A DNA stretch of 64,000 nt from a virus: the IMG/VR virus record IMGVR_UViG_3300020045_002314, positions 26,193 through 90,192 of that record. The stretch is one strand, 5' to 3'. Positions 1-59,472 of this stretch are shown here, in pieces (positions within the stretch are counted from its first letter, which is position 1; each line of letters opens with the position of its first letter). The notes beneath the pieces were generated by a model. That model had not been told where the DNA came from. It did not search any database and saw nothing but the letters and a program-made list of their open reading frames with translations. The position numbers were made by a program, and so were the translations under genes.

Positions 1-3000
1 TTGCAAAACAATACTCAATATGCTAATAATCCTTCTGAATTCTTAAAGCATTTATCTAATTCATTTAGTGGTAAAAATGCAGCTAAAGGTAAGAATGTAG
101 ATTTCTTAACTAGAATATATAATGATGCAATAACATCACAAGAAATTATAAAATCATTAACAACACAAGATAAAGTTAATTTAAAATATGTAAAATCATC
201 ATCAGGACAATATAATAAATCTAATAAACAAAGACCTTTATTTGAAGTATTTGATAAAACTAAAGGTAGATTAGCACATTATTCTAATGGTATATTACAA
301 TATAGAAATAGTGATGGAACAACGGATGCTGTGTATAATCAACAATTAATTGATACAGTACAGAAATTTAAAAAACCTAATGGTTATTATTGGGTTACTA
401 CTGAAAACTTTAATAAATCTGAATTTCCTATTAAATTAGGACAACGTAATATAACTACAGATGAAGCTTTAAATATATATAATGAATTATTAAAGAATAA
501 TTATAATCCTATATATAAATTATTAACTACTAATAAAATAAAAGATTTATTAAAACAAGTATCAGGTATAGATAAAGATATTAAATCGTATACTAGTCAA
601 GATTTAGATAAAACTAAATTTATGGAATTAGCAACTAATACATTTGTTGATTTTATATTTGGTAATGATAACGTAAAACATAATAGAAGTTCTTATGATA
701 ATTTAGGAAGTATATTTACAACTGATGTAAATTATGTATTAGATAATGAAGGTAATAAAATAGGAGTTACTACACCATTTGCTAGTACAACAAATATTTC
801 ATATGTTGAAAGAGCATTTACATTAATTTTAGAATTAGATAATACACAAGTTAATAATATAACTAAATTTGATAATACTAATCTTAATAATATTAAAAAT
901 GGTGTAGAAGAATTATTTAATTCTAATCCTGATTTAGCAAATATTGGTACACAAGAACAATACTCTGCTTATCTTGATACTATATTTCCTGATAGTAAAG
1001 TTAAAGATGTTGTTTATCATGGAGCTAATGAACCTATTGAAGGAGATAAATTTGTTGTAAGACCTGGTGCAACAGGTAATGGTATATGGTTTTCAGGTTC
1101 TAAACGATATGCCACACAAGTATTAAATAGAGCACCTCAGCAAGAATCTTTACTTGGAAGAAAGCTAAGAGGTGAACCTACAATGTATAGTGCTATATTA
1201 AATATTATAAACCCTAAACATTACAAAGATGCAAGTGGAGCAATATTAGCACAAAGCCCTGAAAGATTTCTAGAAGGAAAAATAGAAGAATATAGATTAC
1301 ATGGTAATGAACAATATAATAAAGATATAGATGACGGTGCATTATTTCATCATCCTAATTCAAAGAAACCAGATACAAGTGATTCTGCTGAACAAGTTGT
1401 AGTATTTAATCCTGACCAAATACATATTCTAGGTTCTAAACAAGATATTGAAGGATTTAAAGAATTTATAAATGATACTCCAATAATTACAGATATTTCA
1501 GTACAAGAATTAGAAGATATTTTAGATAAAGAAAAGCAAAAATTGTTAAACCCTTTAATTGAAGAGAAACAAGAATTAGAAACATTATTAGAAGAATATG
1601 AAGAATTTAAAAATATTAATAATATTAAAATAAAAGAACTTATTTTTTCTAATGAAATAAATATAAATTCTATTATTACTGATAATGTTACAGAAATAGA
1701 AATAGAAGAAATTGCTAAAGAAGAATATATTAAAATTGAAGAAGTTAAACCATTAATTGAAAAAACTTTAAATACTGTATTAAATGATAAACGTAAACTT
1801 ACTAATTTAAATTCAAAATTAAAAACTATAATCTCAAAAATATTAAAAACAATATTAACATTAGGTATTATATTTACATTACATACAAATTTTAAAAATG
1901 ATATTAAAGAATACAAAATAAAAGAAGTTATTAAAACTGAAGTAAATATAGATACTATTGATAATAGCTATGATAAATTAACTAATGATGGTAAAATAGC
2001 GTATTTACAAGAAAAACAAAATAATAAAGCATTTATAATAATTGATAAACCTACAGCAACTGCATACATATATGATAAAGATGGTAAACTAATAAAATAT
2101 TTTCCTGTATTATTAGGACAAAGTATTGGCGATGAAATAAGTAAATCAGATGCAAATTCGGATGTAGCCGAAAATGCTTTTACAACAAGTGGACGATATG
2201 TATTACAAGCTGCTCCTGAAAAAGTTTTAAGTGAATACAATAATAGACTTATGTATATAGATTCTGAAACAGGATTGGCTATACATGAAACTTATAAAGG
2301 TGAATTAAAAGAACGTACTAAAGCTTTAAATACTCCAACTATAGATGATAATCGTAAAACATGGGGATGTGTTAATGTAAGTTCTGAAAATTATGATATT
2401 TACTTAGCTCCTCATATACAACCAGGAAGTGTTATTATTATAACACGAGATTTTCAAAATAATATTGTTAAACCTATAAATATACAAGAATCTAAAAAAA
2501 CTTCTAAACAATCAAATGTTAGTTTTAATATTTTAGCATTATTAGGATTATCTTCATTATTACGTAAAAAACAAATATCAAATTTATCAGAACAAGATAT
2601 TGAATCTTTAAAAAATAGAATTATAGATATTAATAATAAAATTAATGAAATTAAAACCTATTATGCTAATATACGAATTAATAATAATTTAATACAAGAA
2701 TTAGAAGATGATGATTTACCTGATGTATTTCGTAGAACACCTATTAATCAAAAAGAAATTAATATTAAATCATCTTATGAATCAGCTAAACAATATCTTG
2801 AAGAAAGATTAGGTAATGTTAAATTTAATTGGTTAAATGAATATGTTGAAAGAATACCTGATGTAAAAACACATGGGTTTGTAAGTAATGCTGCTATAAC
2901 CTTAATAGAAGGTGCAGCATATGGTACAGAATATCATGAAGCATTTGAATATGTATTTAAATATTTAATTGGAGATACATATAAAAGTGAAGTTATTTCC

Positions 3001-6000
3001 GAAGCATCTAAATATTATAAAACAGATGATGTTAATTTATTAAGAGAACAACTTGCAGAAGATTATAGATTATATGAAATATTAAGAAATGAAGAGAATA
3101 AACCTAAAACAATTATAGATTTCTTTAAACATCTATTTAAAACACTTAGAGAATTTATATCACTTAGTCCATATACTAAAAGATTATTTGAAGATATTTA
3201 TAATGGTAGATTTGTTAATAAAGAAATATTGACAAATAATGAAAATGTAGGAATTATAGCTAATAATTATTTAAATTCAATTAAAGGATTTACACCTAGT
3301 AATTTAGATAGTAGTATAAATCTTACAGTAGCCTTGATGGTAGCTGCTCAAAATCATACTCAAATTATAAATGGTAAGCGTGTTAAATTATCAGATATAT
3401 CTATCGAAACAATTGTTACTAATAAAACTGATGATGGTTCGTTTAATAATAAATATAATATTAAACACGTAGTTATTAATATATTAGCTAAAAAGATTAA
3501 TACAATGTTTAAAGATAAATCAGAAGTATATAAAATTACTTATGATAAATTTAATGAACAATATATTACATCTTTAGATACTATTGAAGCAATTACATTT
3601 ACTAATTATTTAAATAATAATACAGCTATCCTAAATGATTTAAAATATAATAATACAGATGTATCAATATATTCTTTAGCTAGAAAATATATGAATGATA
3701 AATTATTTACATCATTTTATGATATTAATGATTTAGAAGAAATTAAAGATAATAGAGTAAATGCTTTAACTAAAATGTATGATGAAAATATATTTTCAGA
3801 ATCACATTCTTATAACTTTAGTCCTATTGTTAAACAATATCTTGCATCTATTAAAGAAAAAACATTTGATATAAATGGTGGAGTTATAGATAAATTAGAT
3901 GATTTTACAGGACTACCTAAATTTATAGATTTTGAAATATTATATAATAAATTAATTGATATTTTAGCAGGTACTCATACTATAGATGAAAAACTTAATG
4001 TACTTAAAACACATTCTAATTTTCATCCTACACTTAAAGAAATATATAATAAACTTACAGAATTACAAGATAATAAATTAGCCAATGAAGATTTATATAA
4101 TGCTTTTATGTCAGATTTTACAGGTACATACTTTGATGAATATGCTACTAATCTTACAGAAGAAGCTATATATTTAAATAAATTAAATCAGACACCTAAA
4201 GAAAATATATTAAATACTATTAAAGGAAATATATATTCTAATCAAGCTATTACTAAACTTACTATAGAAGATTTAAAAGGATATTTAACTATTATAAATT
4301 CTAGTACTAACAATTCTGAAATTATGGATATGTTAGTTAAAATATTTAATTATATATCTGTACCTATTACTAAAGATATTTTATATAGTTATATAAAAGA
4401 TGAAACTATTAATATAGATAATAAAACTACTTTATTAAAATCATTAGTCACAGAAGATAAATTAAATGGATTACTTAAAGTTGTTAATTCTAGTAATAAT
4501 AATAATAAAGATATTAATATCTATTTAGAAAAATATTCTGAAATGATTAATAAATATTCTTTAGCTAAATTAGAATTATCATATACCGATATTAATGGTA
4601 ATAAGAAATATTCATTTAGAAAATATAATACAATTAATGAATTCTTTAGTAAATTAAAATCTAAACATGAACCAAATCAAAATAGTGTTAAAGAATATTT
4701 AATGGAATTAATGTTAGATAATTCATATCATTATTCTAATTGGTTATTTAATAATAAAGGATTATTAGTTAAAGAAGGTAGTAGAGTTTCATTAAATACA
4801 AATCTTGTATCTAATTTTGATATAGCTTTATATGGAGGTAGTAAAAATGCTACTGGACAAACAAGTGGTTATCTTAGAGAAACTCACTTTGAACAAGCTA
4901 TCAATAATTTATCATGGTATATGAATTCAAAATTTATATCACCTATGCCTTTTGGAGATAGTACAAATCATTATATGATTAAAGCTATTAACTTTAAATT
5001 ATTACCTAATGATATAACCATTAAAGATAAATCAATTATATTAAGTGATAAATCAGATATATTTATAGCTTTACGTAATGTTATATTACAAGAGAAAATA
5101 AGAATGAGTGAAGCTAAAATGTATATGTATAATAAGGATGGTAAGTTAAAACCAGATTATGAATTAGAACAATTAAACCTTATTGAAAATGTACATTATA
5201 AAGTTGATAAATCAGGTAATAGAATTTATAGAGATGAAAAAGGAAATCCTGTAGGTAATATATTTAAATTTAATAATATAGAACTTACAGAAGATATTAT
5301 TTATAATGGTGAAGTACAACTTAATTTAGTCAATGAACAAGTTATTAATGATGCTATTCAGAAGCTTATTAATAATGAAATGAATTCAAACTTAGGTGTA
5401 TTGTATAAATCATTAAACTCTGAATTCCCTACTATATCTGATACAGAATTTAATAATATTATTTTAGAACTATTAATGAATACATTAATTACTAATGTTG
5501 AAATTGGTAATTTCTTCAATGGTAATATCATGCAACAAAGTAAAGTCGCAGGTGTTAATAAAAGAGCTAAAAAAGGTATTCAATTTGGTTATAATTTATA
5601 TAGTAATTCAACATTATCTACAATTGTAGTAAATGATAGAATGATTAATTTAAATACCAAAGGTGAATCTAATCGTAAAGAAACATATACTAATATTATA
5701 AATAGAGTATCTACTATTGTAAATACTAATTATAATAATAAATATAAAGATATTATATTAGCTAATATTAAATCTCAATATAGTGCTGATATTAATTCTA
5801 CAGATGGTTGGTCTATAATGACTATAGACGGATATGTAAAAATGTATTTAGAAGGTAAAGGTAGATTTAACGATTATAGATATTTATTTAATTATACTAA
5901 TGGTAAATATACACTTAAATCTAATTTATCTAAACAAGATATAAAAGCTGTATTACAAGTTATTAAACCTATTATGGTTGATATGAAATCTAATATTATA

Positions 6001-9000
6001 AAAGATGATAAAACTGAATATCGTGTAAATGTAGCACGTTATGAAAAACTATCAATCTTTATAATAGATGAATTATTTGTACAACCTGATAGTGAAATGC
6101 AAGAATTACTTACAGCGATGAATGAAGGTATTGATGGTAAACCTATAGACAGAATTATATTTGCATCAGGTAAGAAAGATGGTAACGTAAAAAGATATTC
6201 TATCTTTGATGAAAATGCTAAATTTAATAAAGATTTATTTAAAGCACAACCACATATTGTAGAAGATATACCAGTATCAAAATATAAAATACAATTAGAA
6301 GTACCTGATGATATTAGAGATAAAGAAATAAAAGTAGGAGTACAATTATATAAACATATAGCTAGTAATATAAATAATATACATTCTTACAAACCTTCTT
6401 TTTTAATTTCTAAAAATGATATATCAGGTAAACAATTAAAACAAGAACATCAAAATACATTTAGTTCTATAATTAAGAAACAATCAACTAATTTATTAAA
6501 AACATTATATGATAATTTAAATCTTAGAGATAATGCAGACCATACATTGATTTATAATAATTTAGTAAGAGCATTACAAGATAGAAATATACCTAATGAT
6601 ATTATTAAATCTATTAAATTAATTAATAAAAAGATTGTTACAGATTTAGGTGCTAATGGTATAAATGATAAAATAGTACCAGTTATTAATTCATTATTTA
6701 GAAATAATATAACAGATACTAAATTAGAAGGTGGACATACTGTTATTTTATCTGATGCTTTTTCTAATACAAGTTTAAAAGATGCAGAATATTCTGATGA
6801 TTTAAAATGTTATGCAGATGAAAATGGTAATTGGGTTGTAGAAGTATATATGCCTGTATGGAATTCTGAATTATTAGATGAATTAGGTAATCCAGTTGAT
6901 ATATCTAAATTAGATAATAAATTATTAAATGGGATTGGTTATCGTGTACCTATTACATCACAACATAGTATGGTTACATATAAAGTAAAAGGATTTACAC
7001 CTCCAACATCAGGTAGTGTAATTACATTACCTTCTAATTTAATAACACAAACAGGATGGGATTTTGATGTTGATAGTATTTATTTATTAACTAAAACCAT
7101 AAAGAAGATAAAAGGTAGATATTATGCTAATAGTTATAAACGTATAACTTATCAAGATTATTTAAATAATTCTATACTTGAAAATTATAACTTATCTGAA
7201 TTAACTGAAATATCAGCTAAATATATAAGTTTAGATTCTGAATTAAAAACATTAAATAAATCTTTAGATAATGCTGAATTAAAAACATCTACTAATTATA
7301 AAGAAAATTATAATAAATTACAATATCTATTAGAACGATATAATAAAGAGATAGATGTAGACAAAAAACAGAAGATGGAGAAAAGTCTATATAATTTAAG
7401 AGTTATGTTATTAATGGATGCTGCATTAGAAATAAATACAAATGTAGATGAAGAATTTAAATCTAAGTTTAAAACACTTAAAGATGAAAAAGATAAATAT
7501 TTTAAAGAGATAACTAAATTATTAATTAATAAAGGTTTAATTTATAAAGAAAGTAAGTTTGAAGAATTAGTTAAATCAGATATAACTACTGTACTTACTA
7601 TAGAACAATTACAAAATAGAATGATTGATATATGGACAGATATGTTAAGTCAAAATAATGGTTTTATAGCAATGGTTACATCTTCTACAATTAAACCTAA
7701 TGAATTAATTAGAGATGAAATAAATACTATATTTGAAAGTAATAAAGTAAGTAAAAGCCCTATATTAGCTAGTAATAATTTTAATACAAGAATTAATACA
7801 ACATCAGGAAAAGAGATGTTAGGTATTGCAGCTAATAGTGGTTCGATTATAACTATATTAGAAGAAGGTAGTGCAGTATTAAACTATGATTTACAAATAC
7901 CTTATTATATTGAATATAATGATGTAAATTTAAATAATGTACAAAATGATTATGGTAATTATGAAGTTATTACATTTAATAATCGTAAGTATATTAAAAC
8001 TAAATTTAAAAATATAGGTTGGAACGATAGTGGAGATACTAGAATGTTAACTAAATTATATGAAGATAATAACGATGTTGAATATACATATACTATTTCA
8101 GAATCTATAGGTTGGGATACAGACCATTCAGTAGATATTAATTCATCGTTAATGCCTAGAAATATAAATCGTAATACAATAGGTACTAATATTGCAGCTA
8201 AAATGTTGAAATTACCACCTAGATATATTACATTATTATTTAATCAAAAAATCATAGATGATATGTTAAATTTAATAAATAAACATAATCCTAATGATGG
8301 TAGATTAAATGCAAAAACAGCTATCGAAGATATTTATTTTACAATGTTATTTAAGAAATTAGCATATACTGATAATAAATTTAATAATAATGTTGAGTAT
8401 GTAGAAATGAATAGAGATTATATTAAACATAATACTGTATTATCGAATAAGTTATATAATGATAATAAAAGTGTATATGATATATTCAATATTGTAGATG
8501 AACCTTTTGATGAAGTTGATTTAAAAAACTTTATAATTGAAGGATTAGATATTCAAAAACAGCCAGTAGATAAACAAGTAGAGTTTATTAAGAAGCAACT
8601 TAATGTATTTAAAATGTATAAATATTTGAATAGTACATCAGAAGCAATGTTAGGTGAAACATCTAAAATGAATGCTGATAAAATAGATTCAGGTATAACA
8701 TTTGATGCTGTTACAGATTTAATTAAAGCTGTAGATAGTAAAGATAAAGTTGTTATATATACAAATACAGGTAAACCATTCTTAAAAGAATTATATAGTA
8801 ATCCTGATTTATATAAATTAATGTATACATATTATAAAGAAGGAGTTGAGAATTTATATAATATAGCTAAAGATTTATTTGGTTATTTAACACCTACTTT
8901 AAAAACTGAAATAGATGGATTCCATGAATTATATCCTTATGCTAGAAGAGAAGTTTATAAATTTATAAGAAGTATATATTATAGTATATATAAAGATTTT

Positions 9001-9840
9001 AATTTATTTAAATTAGCTAATGATGAAGTTAATCAAAATTTATATAACTTAAAAAATGATAATAGTTTAGTATCAAGAATAGTTAAATTAAAAAGTAAAC
9101 CTGAAAATCAACAACCTATTTGGTTACAATATATAAATGTTGTACCTTTTAGAAATAATCAAAACTACGCATATTTAACATTTACTAATTATAATAATAA
9201 AATGTTAAATTATATACATGATAGTTTTAATAATTATATAGATGAAAACATAGAAGATAATTATACACTTGTTGAAGATTTAGTTAAATATGCTTATTTC
9301 AAAGAAGGATTTACATATAAATATAGTAATATTTCTAATTTATTAACAGATTTTACATTTACTATTTTAGGTTTTAATGATTATAAAATAAATGCTTTTA
9401 ATAAAATTAAAACAGATACTTTAAATTTAGATACAAATAATATATTATTATCATTCTTATTAACTAATAGATATGATAATCAGTTTGTACCTAAAGTAAA
9501 AGTAACTAAAAAGAATAAAACATGGGATGTATTAAATGGTAATAAGATAAAGAATATTATTACTATTGATGCTACAAGTTATGCAAGATTATATAGTAAT
9601 ATTCAAAATGCTCCTATTGTTAGGCGAACAATTAAATATAATAATAAGTTTATAGATTTATTTTATTATAAAACATTTGATGAAGTTAATAAAATACATG
9701 AATATAAATTATTAGATACTAAAAAACTATTACCTTATACTAATATATCTTTAAATAATATTAATAATATAGATAATGTAGCAGGTGTTTCTTTTTATGA
9801 TAACGATGATATGTCAGTTGAATTATATTGTAACAATTAA
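1..9840 (+). CDS. Giant virion-associated RNA polymerase polyprotein, crAss-like, probably 5'-truncated by the window edge. It carries ART-like, L,D-transpeptidase-like and zincin-like domains.
   Basis: 3279-aa ORF open from base 1. Two-barrel RNAP metal-binding motif in TQTGWDFDVDS (DFDVD at nt 7060-7074), preceded by GYRVP. HEAFE zincin-like motif near nt 2935. IHET...TWGCVNV LDT-like motif near nt 2280-2380. VYHG...GIWFS...EQVVVFNPDQI ART-like segment at nt ~1000-1430. Confidence 0.85.
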   Translation: MQNNTQYANNPSEFLKHLSNSFSGKNAAKGKNVDFLTRIYNDAITSQEIIKSLTTQDKVNLKYVKSSSGQYNKSNKQRPLFEVFDKTKGRLAHYSNGILQYRNSDGTTDAVYNQQLIDTVQKFKKPNGYYWVTTENFNKSEFPIKLGQRNITTDEALNIYNELLKNNYNPIYKLLTTNKIKDLLKQVSGIDKDIKSYTSQDLDKTKFMELATNTFVDFIFGNDNVKHNRSSYDNLGSIFTTDVNYVLDNEGNKIGVTTPFASTTNISYVERAFTLILELDNTQVNNITKFDNTNLNNIKNGVEELFNSNPDLANIGTQEQYSAYLDTIFPDSKVKDVVYHGANEPIEGDKFVVRPGATGNGIWFSGSKRYATQVLNRAPQQESLLGRKLRGEPTMYSAILNIINPKHYKDASGAILAQSPERFLEGKIEEYRLHGNEQYNKDIDDGALFHHPNSKKPDTSDSAEQVVVFNPDQIHILGSKQDIEGFKEFINDTPIITDISVQELEDILDKEKQKLLNPLIEEKQELETLLEEYEEFKNINNIKIKELIFSNEININSIITDNVTEIEIEEIAKEEYIKIEEVKPLIEKTLNTVLNDKRKLTNLNSKLKTIISKILKTILTLGIIFTLHTNFKNDIKEYKIKEVIKTEVNIDTIDNSYDKLTNDGKIAYLQEKQNNKAFIIIDKPTATAYIYDKDGKLIKYFPVLLGQSIGDEISKSDANSDVAENAFTTSGRYVLQAAPEKVLSEYNNRLMYIDSETGLAIHETYKGELKERTKALNTPTIDDNRKTWGCVNVSSENYDIYLAPHIQPGSVIIITRDFQNNIVKPINIQESKKTSKQSNVSFNILALLGLSSLLRKKQISNLSEQDIESLKNRIIDINNKINEIKTYYANIRINNNLIQELEDDDLPDVFRRTPINQKEINIKSSYESAKQYLEERLGNVKFNWLNEYVERIPDVKTHGFVSNAAITLIEGAAYGTEYHEAFEYVFKYLIGDTYKSEVISEASKYYKTDDVNLLREQLAEDYRLYEILRNEENKPKTIIDFFKHLFKTLREFISLSPYTKRLFEDIYNGRFVNKEILTNNENVGIIANNYLNSIKGFTPSNLDSSINLTVALMVAAQNHTQIINGKRVKLSDISIETIVTNKTDDGSFNNKYNIKHVVINILAKKINTMFKDKSEVYKITYDKFNEQYITSLDTIEAITFTNYLNNNTAILNDLKYNNTDVSIYSLARKYMNDKLFTSFYDINDLEEIKDNRVNALTKMYDENIFSESHSYNFSPIVKQYLASIKEKTFDINGGVIDKLDDFTGLPKFIDFEILYNKLIDILAGTHTIDEKLNVLKTHSNFHPTLKEIYNKLTELQDNKLANEDLYNAFMSDFTGTYFDEYATNLTEEAIYLNKLNQTPKENILNTIKGNIYSNQAITKLTIEDLKGYLTIINSSTNNSEIMDMLVKIFNYISVPITKDILYSYIKDETINIDNKTTLLKSLVTEDKLNGLLKVVNSSNNNNKDINIYLEKYSEMINKYSLAKLELSYTDINGNKKYSFRKYNTINEFFSKLKSKHEPNQNSVKEYLMELMLDNSYHYSNWLFNNKGLLVKEGSRVSLNTNLVSNFDIALYGGSKNATGQTSGYLRETHFEQAINNLSWYMNSKFISPMPFGDSTNHYMIKAINFKLLPNDITIKDKSIILSDKSDIFIALRNVILQEKIRMSEAKMYMYNKDGKLKPDYELEQLNLIENVHYKVDKSGNRIYRDEKGNPVGNIFKFNNIELTEDIIYNGEVQLNLVNEQVINDAIQKLINNEMNSNLGVLYKSLNSEFPTISDTEFNNIILELLMNTLITNVEIGNFFNGNIMQQSKVAGVNKRAKKGIQFGYNLYSNSTLSTIVVNDRMINLNTKGESNRKETYTNIINRVSTIVNTNYNNKYKDIILANIKSQYSADINSTDGWSIMTIDGYVKMYLEGKGRFNDYRYLFNYTNGKYTLKSNLSKQDIKAVLQVIKPIMVDMKSNIIKDDKTEYRVNVARYEKLSIFIIDELFVQPDSEMQELLTAMNEGIDGKPIDRIIFASGKKDGNVKRYSIFDENAKFNKDLFKAQPHIVEDIPVSKYKIQLEVPDDIRDKEIKVGVQLYKHIASNINNIHSYKPSFLISKNDISGKQLKQEHQNTFSSIIKKQSTNLLKTLYDNLNLRDNADHTLIYNNLVRALQDRNIPNDIIKSIKLINKKIVTDLGANGINDKIVPVINSLFRNNITDTKLEGGHTVILSDAFSNTSLKDAEYSDDLKCYADENGNWVVEVYMPVWNSELLDELGNPVDISKLDNKLLNGIGYRVPITSQHSMVTYKVKGFTPPTSGSVITLPSNLITQTGWDFDVDSIYLLTKTIKKIKGRYYANSYKRITYQDYLNNSILENYNLSELTEISAKYISLDSELKTLNKSLDNAELKTSTNYKENYNKLQYLLERYNKEIDVDKKQKMEKSLYNLRVMLLMDAALEINTNVDEEFKSKFKTLKDEKDKYFKEITKLLINKGLIYKESKFEELVKSDITTVLTIEQLQNRMIDIWTDMLSQNNGFIAMVTSSTIKPNELIRDEINTIFESNKVSKSPILASNNFNTRINTTSGKEMLGIAANSGSIITILEEGSAVLNYDLQIPYYIEYNDVNLNNVQNDYGNYEVITFNNRKYIKTKFKNIGWNDSGDTRMLTKLYEDNNDVEYTYTISESIGWDTDHSVDINSSLMPRNINRNTIGTNIAAKMLKLPPRYITLLFNQKIIDDMLNLINKHNPNDGRLNAKTAIEDIYFTMLFKKLAYTDNKFNNNVEYVEMNRDYIKHNTVLSNKLYNDNKSVYDIFNIVDEPFDEVDLKNFIIEGLDIQKQPVDKQVEFIKKQLNVFKMYKYLNSTSEAMLGETSKMNADKIDSGITFDAVTDLIKAVDSKDKVVIYTNTGKPFLKELYSNPDLYKLMYTYYKEGVENLYNIAKDLFGYLTPTLKTEIDGFHELYPYARREVYKFIRSIYYSIYKDFNLFKLANDEVNQNLYNLKNDNSLVSRIVKLKSKPENQQPIWLQYINVVPFRNNQNYAYLTFTNYNNKMLNYIHDSFNNYIDENIEDNYTLVEDLVKYAYFKEGFTYKYSNISNLLTDFTFTILGFNDYKINAFNKIKTDTLNLDTNNILLSFLLTNRYDNQFVPKVKVTKKNKTWDVLNGNKIKNIITIDATSYARLYSNIQNAPIVRRTIKYNNKFIDLFYYKTFDEVNKIHEYKLLDTKKLLPYTNISLNNINNIDNVAGVSFYDNDDMSVELYCNN

Positions 9841-40608: not shown

Positions 40609-40879
40609 TAGTTCTTATGCAGCTGCTTTTACAGGTGCGAACATGAATTGATTACTGTTTCCAGTTATTGTTTACTTTAACTCTATTTATACATACTTCA
40701 AATGCTGTCAAAACCAAGATGCCCCTATTTAAATAAGAGTAGATATTTTACTACCTACTCTTTCAACATACGTTGTTGATTGACGTTCAATTGACAAACC
40801 TACTTAAAAGGTTGTGGAGCATTAGGGAATCGAACCCTAGTCCAAACATTAAGTATTATAACTTAACAAGTTAAAATAG
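40578..40879 (-). ncRNA. ssrA: Circularly permuted (two-piece) tmRNA
   Basis: Minus-strand order: acceptor piece ...GGAC-TAGGG-TTCGATT-CCCTA-ATGCTCC-A (ends 40815); then an 89-nt spacer; then the coding piece GGGGCAT-CTTGGTTTTGACAG (starts 40725). The 7-bp acceptor stem has G3:U70. ATAACT resume context, then tag ORF 40662-40615 encoding GNSNQFMFAPVKAAA*. Confidence 0.9.
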
Positions 40880-41542: not shown

Positions 41543-41968
41543 TTATTTTAATAAGTTTAAAATTTTAATTATATCTACAAGTATAGCTTTTTCATAAATA
41601 GTAGAATAGAATAAACCTATTGTGTCATTATCATCTTCTCTTAATACAGCTATATTAATTTCATCATGATATAAATTAATTTTAAATCCTTCAAAGTATA
41701 AAGTAGTTATTTTTAAACCACATATGTTATTTTCTATATTTAATAATTTACATTTATCTGATTTAAGGTATTTATGTAAAATCCTTCTATTTCTATAATA
41801 TTTATATTCAAAAAAGAAATCATAAAGTTTATTAAATACAAGACCAAACGTAAGTATCATTATAATTATAAATAATATTGTTAATAATAATTTTATTATT
41901 ATATTTAAATCTCTTATAAAAATTGTTTTCATATTGTTAAGTTTAAAGGTTTTGTTCAATCCATTCAT
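41543..41968 (-). CDS. Membrane protein; true start probably MKTIF
   Basis: N-terminal TM helix. Confidence 0.55.
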   Translation of the reverse strand: MNGLNKTFKLNNMKTIFIRDLNIIIKLLLTILFIIIMILTFGLVFNKLYDFFFEYKYYRNRRILHKYLKSDKCKLLNIENNICGLKITTLYFEGFKINLYHDEINIAVLREDDNDTIGLFYSTIYEKAILVDIIKILNLLK

Positions 41969-42644
41969 CTATATAATTAACAGGACATACTGTTTGTTTC
42001 TCAATATCATTAATATTTACACCAAATAAATGTAATAAATTAATAACTTCTTCTCTACTCCAACTATCTTTAATTGATTTAATTGTAATAGTATTATCTT
42101 TATCTCTCTTAAGTTCATAAGTAGTGTATTTACCAGTAGGGTCATTCATTTCTAAAAATTCATTATACTCAACCATAACTTTAGTAATAGGTTTACCATT
42201 ATTATAAGCTTCAATATAAGCTTTAATAAATTGAGTTGAAGGTTGTGGTAATTGACATCTACCAAGTATTTCATCATCTTTATCTTTATAAATTAAAGAT
42301 TTATCAGTAGTAGCAATGATTTTCTTACAATTATTTATATCAATAGATTGAATAGAAGAATTATATTTAATAATATCATTTTTTAATAAATCTTTATGAG
42401 ATTTAATTATTAATATATTATCACCATCTTTAATTTCTTCATCAGAAGTAATATAAAGATGTTGAGAACTTAAATTACTATTTTTTAAATACGCTTGAGT
42501 AAAGTATTTATTATTAAAATATTCTAAATGTTTACTACCACGTAAATTTAGTAATAGTAAAGCATTATCAGCTACATTAGTAGTAACCATAACTACTTCA
42601 GCAGGTTTATAATACCTACCATTAATTTCTTTTAACTGTGCCAT
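41943..42644 (-). CDS. Hypothetical phage protein
   Basis: 233 aa containing QHLYITSDEEIKDGD...KKIIATTD...LPQPS. Confidence 0.65.
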   Translation of the reverse strand: MAQLKEINGRYYKPAEVVMVTTNVADNALLLLNLRGSKHLEYFNNKYFTQAYLKNSNLSSQHLYITSDEEIKDGDNILIIKSHKDLLKNDIIKYNSSIQSIDINNCKKIIATTDKSLIYKDKDDEILGRCQLPQPSTQFIKAYIEAYNNGKPITKVMVEYNEFLEMNDPTGKYTTYELKRDKDNTITIKSIKDSWSREEVINLLHLFGVNINDIEKQTVCPVNYIDEWIEQNL

Positions 42645-42674
42645 TGGTCTTTAGTTTTAAGATTAATAATTTAT

Positions 42675-42863
42675 TTAATTATAATAACAATCATCATTTT
42701 CATCTAAAGAATAATATAAACTTTTACCAAATTGTTTTTGTTGTTCATATTCTTGTTCATGTAATTTTCTATTGCTATAATATATTCTAGCACTTTCTTT
42801 ATTTTCAGCTTTTCTTGATTTAGCTTTGTTTATTTGTTTACGAACTGATTCTCTCCAACCCAT
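42675..42863 (-). CDS. Hypothetical protein
   Basis: 62-aa ORF. Confidence 0.5.
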   Translation of the reverse strand: MGWRESVRKQINKAKSRKAENKESARIYYSNRKLHEQEYEQQKQFGKSLYYSLDENDDCYYN

Positions 42864-42895
42864 TATATTTATTTTTAAGATTAATAATTTAATTA

Positions 42896-43845
42896 AAATA
42901 AGTGAAATTAATAATAATTAAGATTGTACTTCATATAGTAAGAGTTTTTACTAATATATAACTCAGCCCCTATGTTCCTATAATTACGTTTGGCTTGAAC
43001 TTATCTTTATTATTAATATTCACTTATTCTGTAATATCTCCTAGTATCTCTACTAGGTCGCACAATGCAAACTTTGTTGCTACTATACTTATATTACTAT
43101 AAGTAAGGCATAATTATAACTTTGTTCCTAAGATTACGTCTAATCTTATTTAAGTAGGTACTCAACCATATTTAATTATGCTGCCACCATTATAAATTAA
43201 ATTATTAACTATAATAATTGATAATTTATAACTTTATATTACTCTACCTAACAATATTAGGTATGTATTATAAGCACGGCATTATAACCAATAGTAATGG
43301 TATTCACTTCCTGCCGTATGTACTACTTCATATACTCTTGCTAATATATGGTACAAGTTAAAACTTCTTTATAATTAATGTAATCGTGTCATAATATTTA
43401 GTATTAGTTAATTATAAACATATACTTATGTTTATTTTATATCCAATATGCAAATACGATTATATAAATTTATTATTATTATATCTATAAATACTTCTTT
43501 ATAGTAAGTTGCAGTACTAGTTGTAGTACATTTTGCATTAACACTTGATTGTTAAGAAAGCTTTATATTACAAATATAATTAATAACATCTCTTGCTATT
43601 CTAGTAATAACTACAGGATACTACCTTAGAGAATTAGTAGTTACGCCTATCTCATACCTAGACAGATAATATAATTCTAACATATTATGGTGTAAAACAG
43701 TGACACCATGCAGTAGTGGAGTTTCCAAATGAGTTGTGCAATCTGTAAATACATTATAATTTCTTTTACTAGAAAAAAGAATAATATAAACAACCCATAT
43801 AATTATAATTACCTGCATGATAAACATTCCTAGTTTAACCATACA
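42896..43845 (-). ncRNA. Candidate large (~950 nt) highly structured non-coding RNA
   Basis: More than 15 nested or adjacent helices in a nearly ORF-free region; GNRA tetraloops, G:U pairs and an AGUA/GAA module all read correctly on the minus strand. Confidence 0.6.
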
Positions 43846-43860
43846 ATTAATTTAAAGTAA

Positions 43861-44046
43861 TTATTTATCTTTAATGTCAAAATATCCAACTATACTACCA
43901 AGACCTGTTACAGCAGCAGCAGTATAAATTATTTCAGCTTTACCAATTGGTTCCCAATTACAAGTAACAGCTTTATATATACAACGACATTCACCATATA
44001 TTATAGCTATGGTAAAAATAAATAATACTATTGATTTTGTTTTCAT
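43861..44046 (-). CDS. Small membrane protein
   Basis: 61 aa with two hydrophobic segments. Confidence 0.6.
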   Translation of the reverse strand: MKTKSIVLFIFTIAIIYGECRCIYKAVTCNWEPIGKAEIIYTAAAVTGLGSIVGYFDIKDK

Positions 44047-44061
44047 ATGTATAAGTTTAAA

Positions 44062-44406
44062 TTAATTAATATATTCATTTTCTTCACTTCTTTCTAAATC
44101 AATATGGTATTTAATAACTTTAATAACTCTATTGATTATATAGACAATAAATAATAAAATTATAAAACCAATTAAATAAGTAAGTAAAGGTGATATACCA
44201 TATGATACTTCAACTGCTTCACAAGATGTTAAAGATATTAATAGTACAATTGGCATAAATTTATTAAGTTCAATACCATTTTTAAAAACACTTTTAATAT
44301 TATCAAGTATAACACCTAATAAATAAATAAGTATAAATAAAGGCATTAGTAATCCTATAATTATTGAAGTTAAATGTTTTACAATAAAATTTAATAATCT
44401 CTTCAT
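44062..44406 (-). CDS. Membrane protein
   Basis: Three hydrophobic segments and an internal LTSC lipobox-like motif. Confidence 0.55.
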   Translation of the reverse strand: MKRLLNFIVKHLTSIIIGLLMPLFILIYLLGVILDNIKSVFKNGIELNKFMPIVLLISLTSCEAVEVSYGISPLLTYLIGFIILLFIVYIINRVIKVIKYHIDLERSEENEYIN

Positions 44407-57993: not shown

Positions 57994-59472
57994 ATGAGAG
58001 AACTTAGAAATCAAGAATTTAATAATGCTGAATATGTAGATGAAAATTTCTTATATTCAGGTAAATTATTAGGCGTTGATACTATAGGTAAAGAACTTAC
58101 TTACTTACAAGGTAAAGATACAGATATGTATCCTCTTACTTTTTTAACAGAAGGTTCAGGAAATATAGTATCTAAGAAACTTGCTCTAAATGATACCCAA
58201 TATACTTGGGATGTTATGGGTAAGATGAAATATACAAATCGTGTTGTAGGACTTTATGATAGTAATGTTACAACAGCTGGTAAAGGACATACTCCTTTTA
58301 AAGTTTATTTTGAAACAGCACAATTTCCTAAAGACCATACAGCATTAACTCCTGACCATGCTCATTTAGTACGTATTCAAGGTGAACCACAGAAACTTGC
58401 TAATAACAAGTTTTTATATACTATGGTAATTATTAGTGCAGACCCTAGTGAGTATATTTCTTTAGATAACTTCTTAGCAGGTAATGCATGGGTTATGAAC
58501 TCACCTATTGTAGCTTTAAGTAAATCTACTGGTAATAGAAGTAATAGAACAACTCCTGGTAAACTTACTAATCAAATGTCTTTACATAGACATAGTTTAG
58601 AAATTGCAGGTAATATTTCTAATAAAGCTACTGTATATGAATTTGATACAGAAGGTGGTGGTAAAACTAAAATGTGGATGCCCGAAGAAATGCGTCAATT
58701 TAACATTACTCGTAAAGTAATGGATGAACAGAACTTATGGATTAGTAAATATAATCGTAATGAGTTTGGTGTAATTACAACAATTGATGATGAAACTGGA
58801 CAACCTATTCCAATGGGAGCAGGTGTTAAAGAACAAATTAAAGCATCAGGTAATTATAGTACATATACTGAATTATCTATTGATATGCTTGAAAGTATGA
58901 TTGATAGAATTTATATGAATCGTACTAGTGAAGGTGACCCTGAAATCGTAATTTATGCAGGTAAAGGGTTTAAACGTATGTTTCATGATGCAATTAAATC
59001 TAAAGCTACAAATGGTAGTACTTATTATGAAAGATTAGGTGATGCTGAAATTAAAGAATTAGGTTTAAATTTACAATATGGTAGATATTTTAATTCTTAT
59101 AGAACTATAGACAATCGTATTATTACAATTGCTGATTGTGGTGTATTTGATAAAGGTGCTATTGCACAAATGGATATTGAGAATAATAATACTTATCGTA
59201 ATCTTGCTATAGATTCTTATACAGGTATTTTCTTAGACCATTCATTAGATTCTGAATCAGGTTCTAATAATATTCAAATGGTAACTGAAAAAGGTAGAGA
59301 ATTGTTAACAGGTATTTATAGAGGTATGTCACCACTTCCAGACGTATGGGGTGCAGTACCACAAGGTACTTTAGGAACAACTAAAGATATTGCTTCTTAT
59401 GAAATGATGTATAGTCGTGGTATTGCAATGAAAAATAATACTACTTCTTTCATGTGGGAATTTGGAAGATAA
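57994..59472 (+). CDS. Major capsid protein
   Basis: 492 aa; YPLTFLTEG, YTW..MG, IP.GAG..EQI features; position two genes after the portal as in crAss-like phages. Confidence 0.8.
   Translation: MRELRNQEFNNAEYVDENFLYSGKLLGVDTIGKELTYLQGKDTDMYPLTFLTEGSGNIVSKKLALNDTQYTWDVMGKMKYTNRVVGLYDSNVTTAGKGHTPFKVYFETAQFPKDHTALTPDHAHLVRIQGEPQKLANNKFLYTMVIISADPSEYISLDNFLAGNAWVMNSPIVALSKSTGNRSNRTTPGKLTNQMSLHRHSLEIAGNISNKATVYEFDTEGGGKTKMWMPEEMRQFNITRKVMDEQNLWISKYNRNEFGVITTIDDETGQPIPMGAGVKEQIKASGNYSTYTELSIDMLESMIDRIYMNRTSEGDPEIVIYAGKGFKRMFHDAIKSKATNGSTYYERLGDAEIKELGLNLQYGRYFNSYRTIDNRIITIADCGVFDKGAIAQMDIENNNTYRNLAIDSYTGIFLDHSLDSESGSNNIQMVTEKGRELLTGIYRGMSPLPDVWGAVPQGTLGTTKDIASYEMMYSRGIAMKNNTTSFMWEFGR

Follow-up and report, generated by a model that had tools for sequence, protein, structure and literature searches.

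Introduction

Large structured RNAs backed by strong covariation are seldom encountered, and RNase P, transfer-messenger RNA (tmRNA), OLE, GOLLD, ROOL and raiA each exposed new biology or a new architecture. Closest to the element described here is the GOLLD class, large multi-helix RNAs of unknown function that occur in phages and prophages, often beside tRNA genes. GOLLD is the subject of a publication, going by its title and abstract (PMC12286853). For the crAss-like Cellulophaga phage phi14:2, a preprint reports abundant long noncoding RNAs at the g004–g005 and g005–g006 junctions, whose transcription already exceeds that of most protein genes at the earliest time point and stays above it thereafter (Drobysheva et al., bioRxiv 10.1101/2020.03.07.982082). 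Here we analyse a 64,000-nucleotide (nt) stretch of the virus record IMGVR_UViG_3300020045_002314, referred to throughout as the window, and describe an element in one of its gene-free gaps. Positions 43272–43038 on the minus strand probably encode a structured noncoding RNA (ncRNA), a short form of a conserved, uncatalogued family of phage RNAs that would be stand-alone and trans-acting. The element has homologs in other phages, covarying helices, a defined sense strand and no coding capacity, and the family is recurrently embedded in tRNA/tmRNA clusters of phages.

Comparison with described RNAs

We compared positions 42400–44200 on both strands with all 4227 models of Rfam 15 by cmscan and obtained 0 matches at E-values up to 10. 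A scan of the whole window at the Rfam gathering thresholds returned tmRNA_permuted and tRNA only, and no Rfam family matches the element in 11 related loci. The RNA is therefore not GOLLD (RF01998) or ROOL (RF03087), neither of which gave a covariance-model match in the window or in the 11 loci, nor is it OLE, HEARO, raiA, RNase P RNA or a group I or II intron; known riboswitches and ribozymes likewise gave no Rfam covariance-model match. A first-pass annotation of the sequence had proposed either a divergent relative of GOLLD or ROOL or a new class. With no Rfam match the former is rejected, whereas the covariance models and the covariation reported below support the latter. Our literature search, which did not extend to supplementary files, found no description of this RNA family, and the word 'crAss' does not occur in PMC8040213.

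The new family resembles GOLLD and ROOL in kind only, being phage-borne, tRNA-associated and multi-helix with a variable periphery. GOLLD-like traits are the conserved blocks at the junction, peripheral helices that vary between members and the existence of 500–730-nt long forms, but the conserved sequences and the four-way-junction layout differ from those of GOLLD, and the window copy spans only ~235–375 nt. With ROOL the family shares its character as an ornate RNA of unknown function on phage or prophage DNA near tRNAs, whereas the conserved blocks are unrelated. The likeness to phi14:2 lies in a gene-free stretch on the gene strand of a crAss-like phage beside a homolog of the same gene: g004 is 33% identical (E 9e-28) to a 233-amino-acid (aa) protein encoded just downstream of the window's RNA. 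In phi14:2, however, the gap is downstream of g004, whereas the RNA lies upstream of the 233-aa gene. A covariance model of the junction domain of our RNA (R1, see below) scored no higher than 11 bits (11 and 10.1) in 1200–4700 of NC_021806 with filters off and returned nothing from the whole record. The link to phi14:2 is therefore a positional analogy, with homology limited to the neighbouring gene.

Relatives of the element and covariance models

A profile of homologs of the 233-aa protein retrieved 80 loci from viral contigs. One of these loci (L045) has a 30-nt hairpin in common with the window, in which the two differences are compensatory and around which further blocks are common to both; L040, L064, L066 and L067, identified by a fuzzy motif search, carry these blocks in the same order, on the gene strand in every case. 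We scanned the collection with the pattern GCCT-N8-GTAA-N8-TAGTAG, which has at least 113 matches. Among the 113 matches listed, 18 form 8/8 stem pairs, and all 18 carry an AUUGUGC block downstream; GGCAGC is found no more than 130 nt upstream in 17 of them and at −135 in the eighteenth. The remaining 95 listed matches form at most 5 stem pairs, and none carries AUUGUGC. Three further loci, L207, L208 and L210, came from a more specific pattern. The genome_contigs set contains 4 pattern matches, of which only L210 is hit by R1; the other three, candidate bacterial chromosomal copies, are not R1 hits and were rejected as members.

We built alignments on anchored sub-regions, as MAFFT misaligned the conserved blocks when given whole gaps, and derived two covariance models with the window left out: (i) R1, covering the junction domain in 178 positions from 15 relatives, and (ii) R2, covering the 5′ proximal domain from 14 relatives. 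R1 matches the window at 43038–43195 on the minus strand with 88.2 bits (E 2.6e-27) over model positions 1–178 of 178, the next-best match in the 64-kb window reaching 12.7 bits. With filters off, R2 matches 43180–43272 on the minus strand (49.1 bits, E 1.3e-10). What can be shown to be family RNA is thus 235 nt long (43272–43038), well short of the ~950 nt originally suggested.

Architecture of the RNA in the window

The predicted architecture begins with a 5′ proximal domain made of helices P1 and P2, continues with a four-way junction that is closed by GCA/UGC and would hold P_a, P_b with its GUAA loop and P_c, and ends with a 3′ hairpin, P_d. Its elements, all on the minus strand, are as follows.

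43038–43272, minus: conserved core of 235 nt, 5′ proximal domain plus four-way-junction domain (R1, R2; fold z −4.84)
43262–43257 with 43251–43246, minus: helix P1, between the conserved CAUACC and GGUAGAG blocks
43231–43222 with 43199–43190, minus: helix P2; 90.2% of family cells pair, compensatory changes in 6/8 pairs
43180–43188, minus: junction strand GGUGGCAGC, near-invariant
43184–43182 (GCA of GGCAGC) with 43062–43060 (UGC of AUUGUGC), minus: closure of the four-way junction
43181–43173 with 43116–43108, minus: helix P_a, GCATAATTA/TAATTATGC; 5/7 pairs covary
43083–43107, minus: hairpin P_b, GUAA tetraloop at 43097–43094, conserved flanks GCCU and UAGUAG; 7/10 pairs covary
43080–43077 (GCAA) with 43070–43067 (UUGC), minus: helix P_c, from the R1 alignment; 7/7 pairs covary in the family
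43066–43060, minus: AUUGUGC block, invariant, directly after P_c
43040–43057, minus: 3′ hairpin P_d, 7 bp with a GAGA loop

The single-stranded junction blocks are near-invariant, while the peripheral inserts are highly variable. Diagnostic sequence features of the family are present at 43107–43040, namely GCCU, the 8-bp GUAA-looped stem, UAGUAG, and AUUGUGC followed by a hairpin. In the family, 86.7% of P1 cells are paired, with compensatory changes in 2/6 pairs; P2 is capped in the window by a short hairpin that replaces the larger inner P3 domain of the family. P_a encloses a 56-nt lineage-specific insert in the window, holding an AAGAUUA-GACG-UAAUCUU hairpin and a 'loop-E-like' module, and this insert ranges from 4 to >110 nt across members without conservation of sequence. 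P_c carries a variable insert in the family, and the window's P_c is the shortest seen. A hairpin of at least 4 bp is predicted within 30 nt after AUUGUGC in 23/23 strong members, directly after it in 22, with differing stem sequences; its mean minimum free energy is −6.9 kcal/mol, compared to −2.1 kcal/mol in shuffles.

Several stems had already been picked out from the sequence by the first-pass annotation. Its GAGA hairpin at 43057–43040 and its GTAA hairpin correspond to P_d and P_b, and its GCATAATTA/TAATTATGC stem to P_a, all three being family helices supported by covariation. The 'loop-E-like' module noted there did not hold up as a conserved motif, as it sits in the P_a insert that varies in length and sequence, and the TACGGCA/TGCCGTG, TAATCGT/ACGATTA and TGCA..GTACTA stems found no comparative support. 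Within the GGCAGC region only G-N-GGCAGC is invariant among members, and a pairing of UGGUGG with tRNA 3′ ends was dropped for this reason.

Covariation, pairing and strand

RNAalifold, applied to a plain MAFFT alignment of 15 relatives in which no model was fitted, recovers the four-way junction with compensatory changes in 14/27 pairs. In the R1 set of 25 sequences, 94.9% of cells are standard pairs as compared to 76.8% in shuffles (0/500), compensatory changes occur in 19/27 pairs, with both partners altered in 101 cells; when the 3′ partners are shifted by 1–3 columns, pairing falls to 22–50%. The R2 set of 14 sequences pairs in 82.7% of cells versus 68.3% in shuffles (0/500), with compensatory changes in 12/20 pairs; here P2 contributes the 6/8 covarying pairs listed above, support for P1 is moderate and that for P3 is weak. 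Homologs thus display the covariation expected of the structured RNA initially proposed.

G-U or U-G cells number 21, A-C or C-A cells 3. This excess identifies the gene (minus) strand as the RNA sense, in agreement with the strand assigned before relatives were available.

Distribution and genomic context of the family

Strong R1 matches (61.8–128.7 bits) occur in at least 23 records including the window's own, on contigs of 19.7–310 kb; one of these strong members, L210, is an 86-kb contig binned in a metagenome-assembled genome. Weak matches were obtained in L053 (30.2 bits) and L057 (21.3 bits), and L177 repeats the core of L122. A whole-record R1 search yielded one match each in G000, G001, G002 and G003. 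The cultured Leptolyngbya phage Lbo-JY46 (PP438436.1, 125 kb), on which we found no paper in the literature, carries a complete member (R1 78.6 bits, R2 86.7 bits; plus strand, ~8442–8924) in a 593-nt gap that lacks annotation. G002 and G003, both ~100-kb members, encode a distant homolog of the crAss-type capsid protein; searches of the complete 172-, 175- and 310-kb records and of Lbo-JY46 gave none.

In three loci the RNA directly adjoins tRNA genes of its own strand: in L100, tRNA-Ile and tRNA-Met are separated by 733 nt around the RNA with short ORFs (open reading frames) only; in L207, 479 nt separate two tRNAs around the RNA, with a tmRNA upstream; and in L140, tRNA-Arg follows 9 nt downstream of the RNA. 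In other loci tRNA or tmRNA genes lie ~0.1–1.4 kb from the RNA, while Lbo-JY46 has no tRNA or tmRNA gene within 3 kb of it. The genes downstream of the RNA are not homologous across loci, forming only two small BLASTP clusters, and 7/10 of the proteins scanned have no PHROG match.

The phage and the gene-free gap

The virus record is a complete genome of 90,192 bp with direct terminal repeats and a GC content of 23.6%, of which the window comprises bases 26193–90192. Judged by its proteins, the phage is an isolated crAss-like lineage, because its capsid protein (57994–59472) shares no more than 41.6% identity with those of crAss-like phages and a search of 5.8 billion proteins gave no relative of its 233-aa protein that is more than 50% identical. 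Relatives at the nucleotide level are therefore not expected. Consistent with this, the DNA of 42600–44100 has no similarity match in 50,697 GenBank phage records, and exact peptide patterns from the 233-aa neighbour and the capsid protein identified no close relative among viral contigs. When the gap was compared with the 80 loci around 233-aa gene homologs, blastn gave only low-complexity AT-rich matches and nhmmer none.

ATG-initiated ORFs of at least 50 aa cover 93.5% of the genome, which bears out its description as tightly packed. The 757 nt of 42864–43620 form one of three gaps >750 nt in the genome and the sole one within a co-directional gene block. This interval contains no ATG ORF of at least 50 aa on either strand and none of at least 20 aa on the minus strand; each of the six frames has 15–37 stops, stop recoding (TAG=Q; TGA=W, table 4) opened no long frame, and no frame shows a coding signal or protein homologs. 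A sigma-70-type promoter and terminator scan found 14 promoter-like sites, compared to 15.0 expected, and 0 terminators; a search for the Bacteroidota-type −7 box found one TAnnTTTG (43578–43571; background 0.78 per kb per strand) and no −33/−7 pair. The elements around the RNA are as follows.

41943–42644, minus: 233-aa gene just downstream of the RNA; matches phrog_15656
42873–42888, minus: conserved pre-ATG motif AUUAUUAAUCUUAAAA, ahead of a 62-aa ORF (42675–42863); downstream limit of the RNA region
42897–43029, minus: window-specific 3′ domain of ~133 nt, a long imperfect stem (43029–43003 with 42924–42897) with a branched interior
43276–43620, minus: 5′ flank, 345 nt, non-coding, not significantly structured
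43621–43842, minus: ORF of 73 aa (222 nt) with a hydrophobic N-terminus

We measured folding stability as z-scores against dinucleotide shuffles. The whole 757 nt reach z −3.66 on the minus and −6.05 on the plus strand (20 shuffles each), so that the gap folds better than shuffled controls, as had been anticipated; both strands beat the shuffles because many stems are perfect palindromes. In 200-nt windows every interval of 42900–43599 has z ≤ −2 on at least one strand, whereas most flanking coding windows fall within −2 to +1.8, some dipping to −2.6 and 42400–42599 standing out as an outlier. The folding excess, at this resolution, is confined to ~42900–43600. The outlier lies inside the 233-aa gene (plus z −4.93, minus z −2.51). 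On the minus strand, the core (43030–43275) has z −4.84 and the 3′ segment (42892–43037) z −3.42, with 0/200 shuffles folding equally well in either case, while the 5′ flank (43276–43620) has z −1.54 with 7/100 shuffles equal, no better than chance. Dense folding, claimed for the region throughout, therefore applies to the core and the 3′ segment but not to the 5′ flank.

Flanking segments and the length of the RNA

The pairing of 42897–42917 with 43007–43028 around a multibranch domain, as read from the sequence beforehand, corresponds to a stable fold (z −3.42), but comparative support is absent: no homolog of the 3′ domain at 42897–43029 was found among the relatives' loci. A 20-nt direct repeat (42970–42989 and 43120–43139, 85% identical) has one copy in the interior of the 3′ domain and the other in the P_a insert, and this suggests that a partial internal duplication gave rise to the window-specific domain. 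The domain may be part of the RNA, or it may be a separate stem-loop or a terminator; if the RNA continues 3′ through the 43029–42897 stem, it may measure ~375 nt rather than 950.

Upstream of 43271 we found no colinear similarity to any member, and the 5′ flank is possibly a spacer, a promoter region or a divergent 5′ domain. Four far-5′ blocks belong to the long form; 6/25 sequences have them in colinear order, covering 520–666 nt up to the 3′ end, and L140 has two. They are absent from the window, which therefore carries the short form.

The claim that ~950 nt lack a convincing ORF stands for 42864–43620 and probably fails for 43621–43842. The 73-aa ORF there is probably a real small protein gene outside the RNA, because a 70-aa relative, encoded on a 1,479-bp contig, is 71% identical with an in-frame 3-residue gap. 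This holds despite a codon score of −0.22 per codon, which counts against coding when compared to 0.545 ± 0.245 for 31 small ORFs. The GTAACTAC/GTAGTTAT and ATGGTGT/ACACCAT stems, earlier counted among the helices of the RNA, fall inside this probable gene. L214 (50% GC), returned when metagenome contigs were scanned with the 73-aa ORF, has no similarity and was discarded as a false positive. Towards the end of the ORF (window 43621–43700), 24/25 last residues are identical in the sole relative while the middle diverges. Because of this difference the 3′ end of the ORF may be constrained at the nucleotide level, for example as a promoter or as the 5′ end of the downstream RNA.

Interpretation and alternative explanations

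On the reading that we favour, the RNA would be stand-alone and trans-acting, not the leader of one gene. It would be transcribed together with the surrounding same-strand early-region genes or tRNAs, and host tRNA-processing enzymes could release it where tRNAs abut. Because the carriers have unrelated capsids and different hosts, its target is probably universally conserved, namely translation or RNA-processing machinery, or else the RNA works through its own folding or self-assembly, in the manner of ROOL and GOLLD. We see roughly an even chance for a more specific version, in which the window holds a new RNA class of phages, large and ornate, in its minimal form (235–375 nt here, ~480–730 nt where bounded by tRNAs); this class would be carried by crAss-like phages, 170–310-kb phages and a cultured cyanophage, be excised from tRNA/tmRNA transcripts by host tRNA-processing enzymes and act as a ribozyme, as a self-assembling particle similar to ROOL and GOLLD, or as a decoy that binds a universally conserved factor of translation or RNA processing.

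Conservation of the family across phages that lack detectable common capsid homology and infect different bacterial phyla argues for a general value to phages. The recurrent placement in tRNA/tmRNA arrays suggests a release route and hints at a link to translation takeover. With a member in the cultured pair Lbo-JY46/Leptolyngbya boryana, expression, processing, structure and knockout phenotype are directly testable, and the unusually small version in the window outlines a minimal core that is useful for structure determination.

A number of points weigh against this reading. The pair counts of the R1 and R2 sets were taken from model-fitted alignments and their shuffle control ignores phylogeny, and the R1 counts therefore lean toward structure; the RNAalifold result on the MAFFT alignment and the split of 18 versus 95 pattern matches do not share the bias of the fitted alignment. 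Members were gathered by motif patterns, and the set is thereby biased toward the consensus. The three junction-closing pairs are invariant in 25/25 sequences and thus outside the reach of covariation, so that they are compatible with the structure without putting it to a covariation test. Under default filters R2 recovered neither the window nor three of the sequences from which it was built. In the window itself the nearest tRNA-like gene and the permuted tmRNA are 2.1 kb downstream, with three protein genes in between. The trans-acting role and the target are, moreover, what we infer, and an ORF begins 21–42 nt past the 3′ hairpin in 11/23 loci, which is compatible with a cis role.

We considered three other explanations for the gap. 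That all of it (757 or ~950 nt) is one giant RNA, with the flanks as lineage-specific domains, seems to us unlikely, although a good deal can be said for it: other members are long, with colinear blocks of 520–666 nt in 6 and the 733 nt between the L100 tRNAs, the gap is free of ORFs, its 3′ stem is stable, and a hairpin precedes CAUACC in all members inspected, like ACGGCA/UGCCGU in the window. The fold of the 5′ flank at chance level, the lack of colinear similarity to members upstream of 43271, the missing long-form 5′ blocks and the conserved ORF at 43621–43842 tell against it. Less probable still is control in cis of the gene immediately downstream, with the RNA as its leader (riboswitch, thermometer or translational operator). 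Beyond the ORFs that begin close to the 3′ hairpin, such a leader would fit the conserved nucleotides of the four-way junction, which resemble a ligand pocket, and the loci L045 and L066, in which the RNA runs directly into the conserved pre-ATG motif. Yet the downstream genes come from unrelated families, a tRNA and not an ORF directly follows in L100, L207 and L140, and ~174 nt lie between the core and the next ORF in the window; no terminator/anti-terminator and no alternative fold sequestering a start codon were seen.

To an element acting at the DNA level, such as a replication origin, packaging or recombination site, or to an AT-rich hairpin spacer or decayed gene with no RNA function, we assign hardly any probability. 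The region is AT-rich with direct repeats, and its folding excess on both strands would suit such an element. Pairing is, however, maintained by compensatory changes across very divergent phages and is strand-asymmetric (21 G-U versus 3 A-C cells), and covariation and strand asymmetry therefore disfavour a DNA-level role. Conservation extends to the GUAA loop and the single-stranded blocks, the orientation is fixed relative to neighbouring tRNA genes, and the lack of any frame with coding signal or protein homologs speaks against a decayed gene.

Neighbouring elements and further observations

Two exact 17-nt copies of the AUUAAUCUUAAAAAC-like motif are present in the window (42657–42673 and 42875–42891), before the 233-aa and the 62-aa ORFs. 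The motif recurs ~10–15 nt before the ATG of 233-aa gene homologs (phrog_15656) in many crAss-like loci (L014, L017, L023, L024, L026, L034, L044, L045, L056 and L066; related copy G000:C1:4463–4518), and it is probably a shared promoter or translation-initiation signal.

The permuted tmRNA of the window is located at 40615–40863. tmRNA genes are found again, at a distance of a few kb or less from phrog_15656 homologs or from the RNA, in L014, L017, L034, L044, L061 and L066, and further in L070 (with a 20-tRNA array), L072, L083, L207 and L057. Because tmRNA and tRNA genes recur in this way, the RNA-gene island looks like a conserved feature of these phages.

tRNA-like pieces called by neither ARAGORN nor Rfam were seen in three loci: a T-arm with an ACCA-like end just upstream of the RNA (L045, ~4650–4676), a cloverleaf-like element just downstream of it (L067, ~4190–4270) and a GGUUCGAGUCC T-loop within the variable inner domain (L182, ~3850–3870). 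In L208 (~9000–9360) two tandem copies of the 5′ block (CAUACC, hairpin, GGUAGAG...AUAAAG) precede a single junction domain, a local duplication within the RNA gene.

The 18-nt palindrome of P_d was rejected as a homology probe, since the 10 loci sharing the palindrome alone are chance matches. Three copies fall within a 3.6-kb span of a 98-kb viral contig that is unrelated in all other respects (L009; 5096–5117, 7109–7126 and 8639–8656), where the palindrome may be a repeated hairpin element. In Lbo-JY46 (~6996–7275, corresponding to L215 1400–1679), three tandem matches to Dicty_Class_I_RNA score 39.3, 30.7 and 26.2 bits, below the gathering threshold of 41.5 bits; these are probably repeated small intergenic hairpins ~1.2 kb upstream of the RNA.

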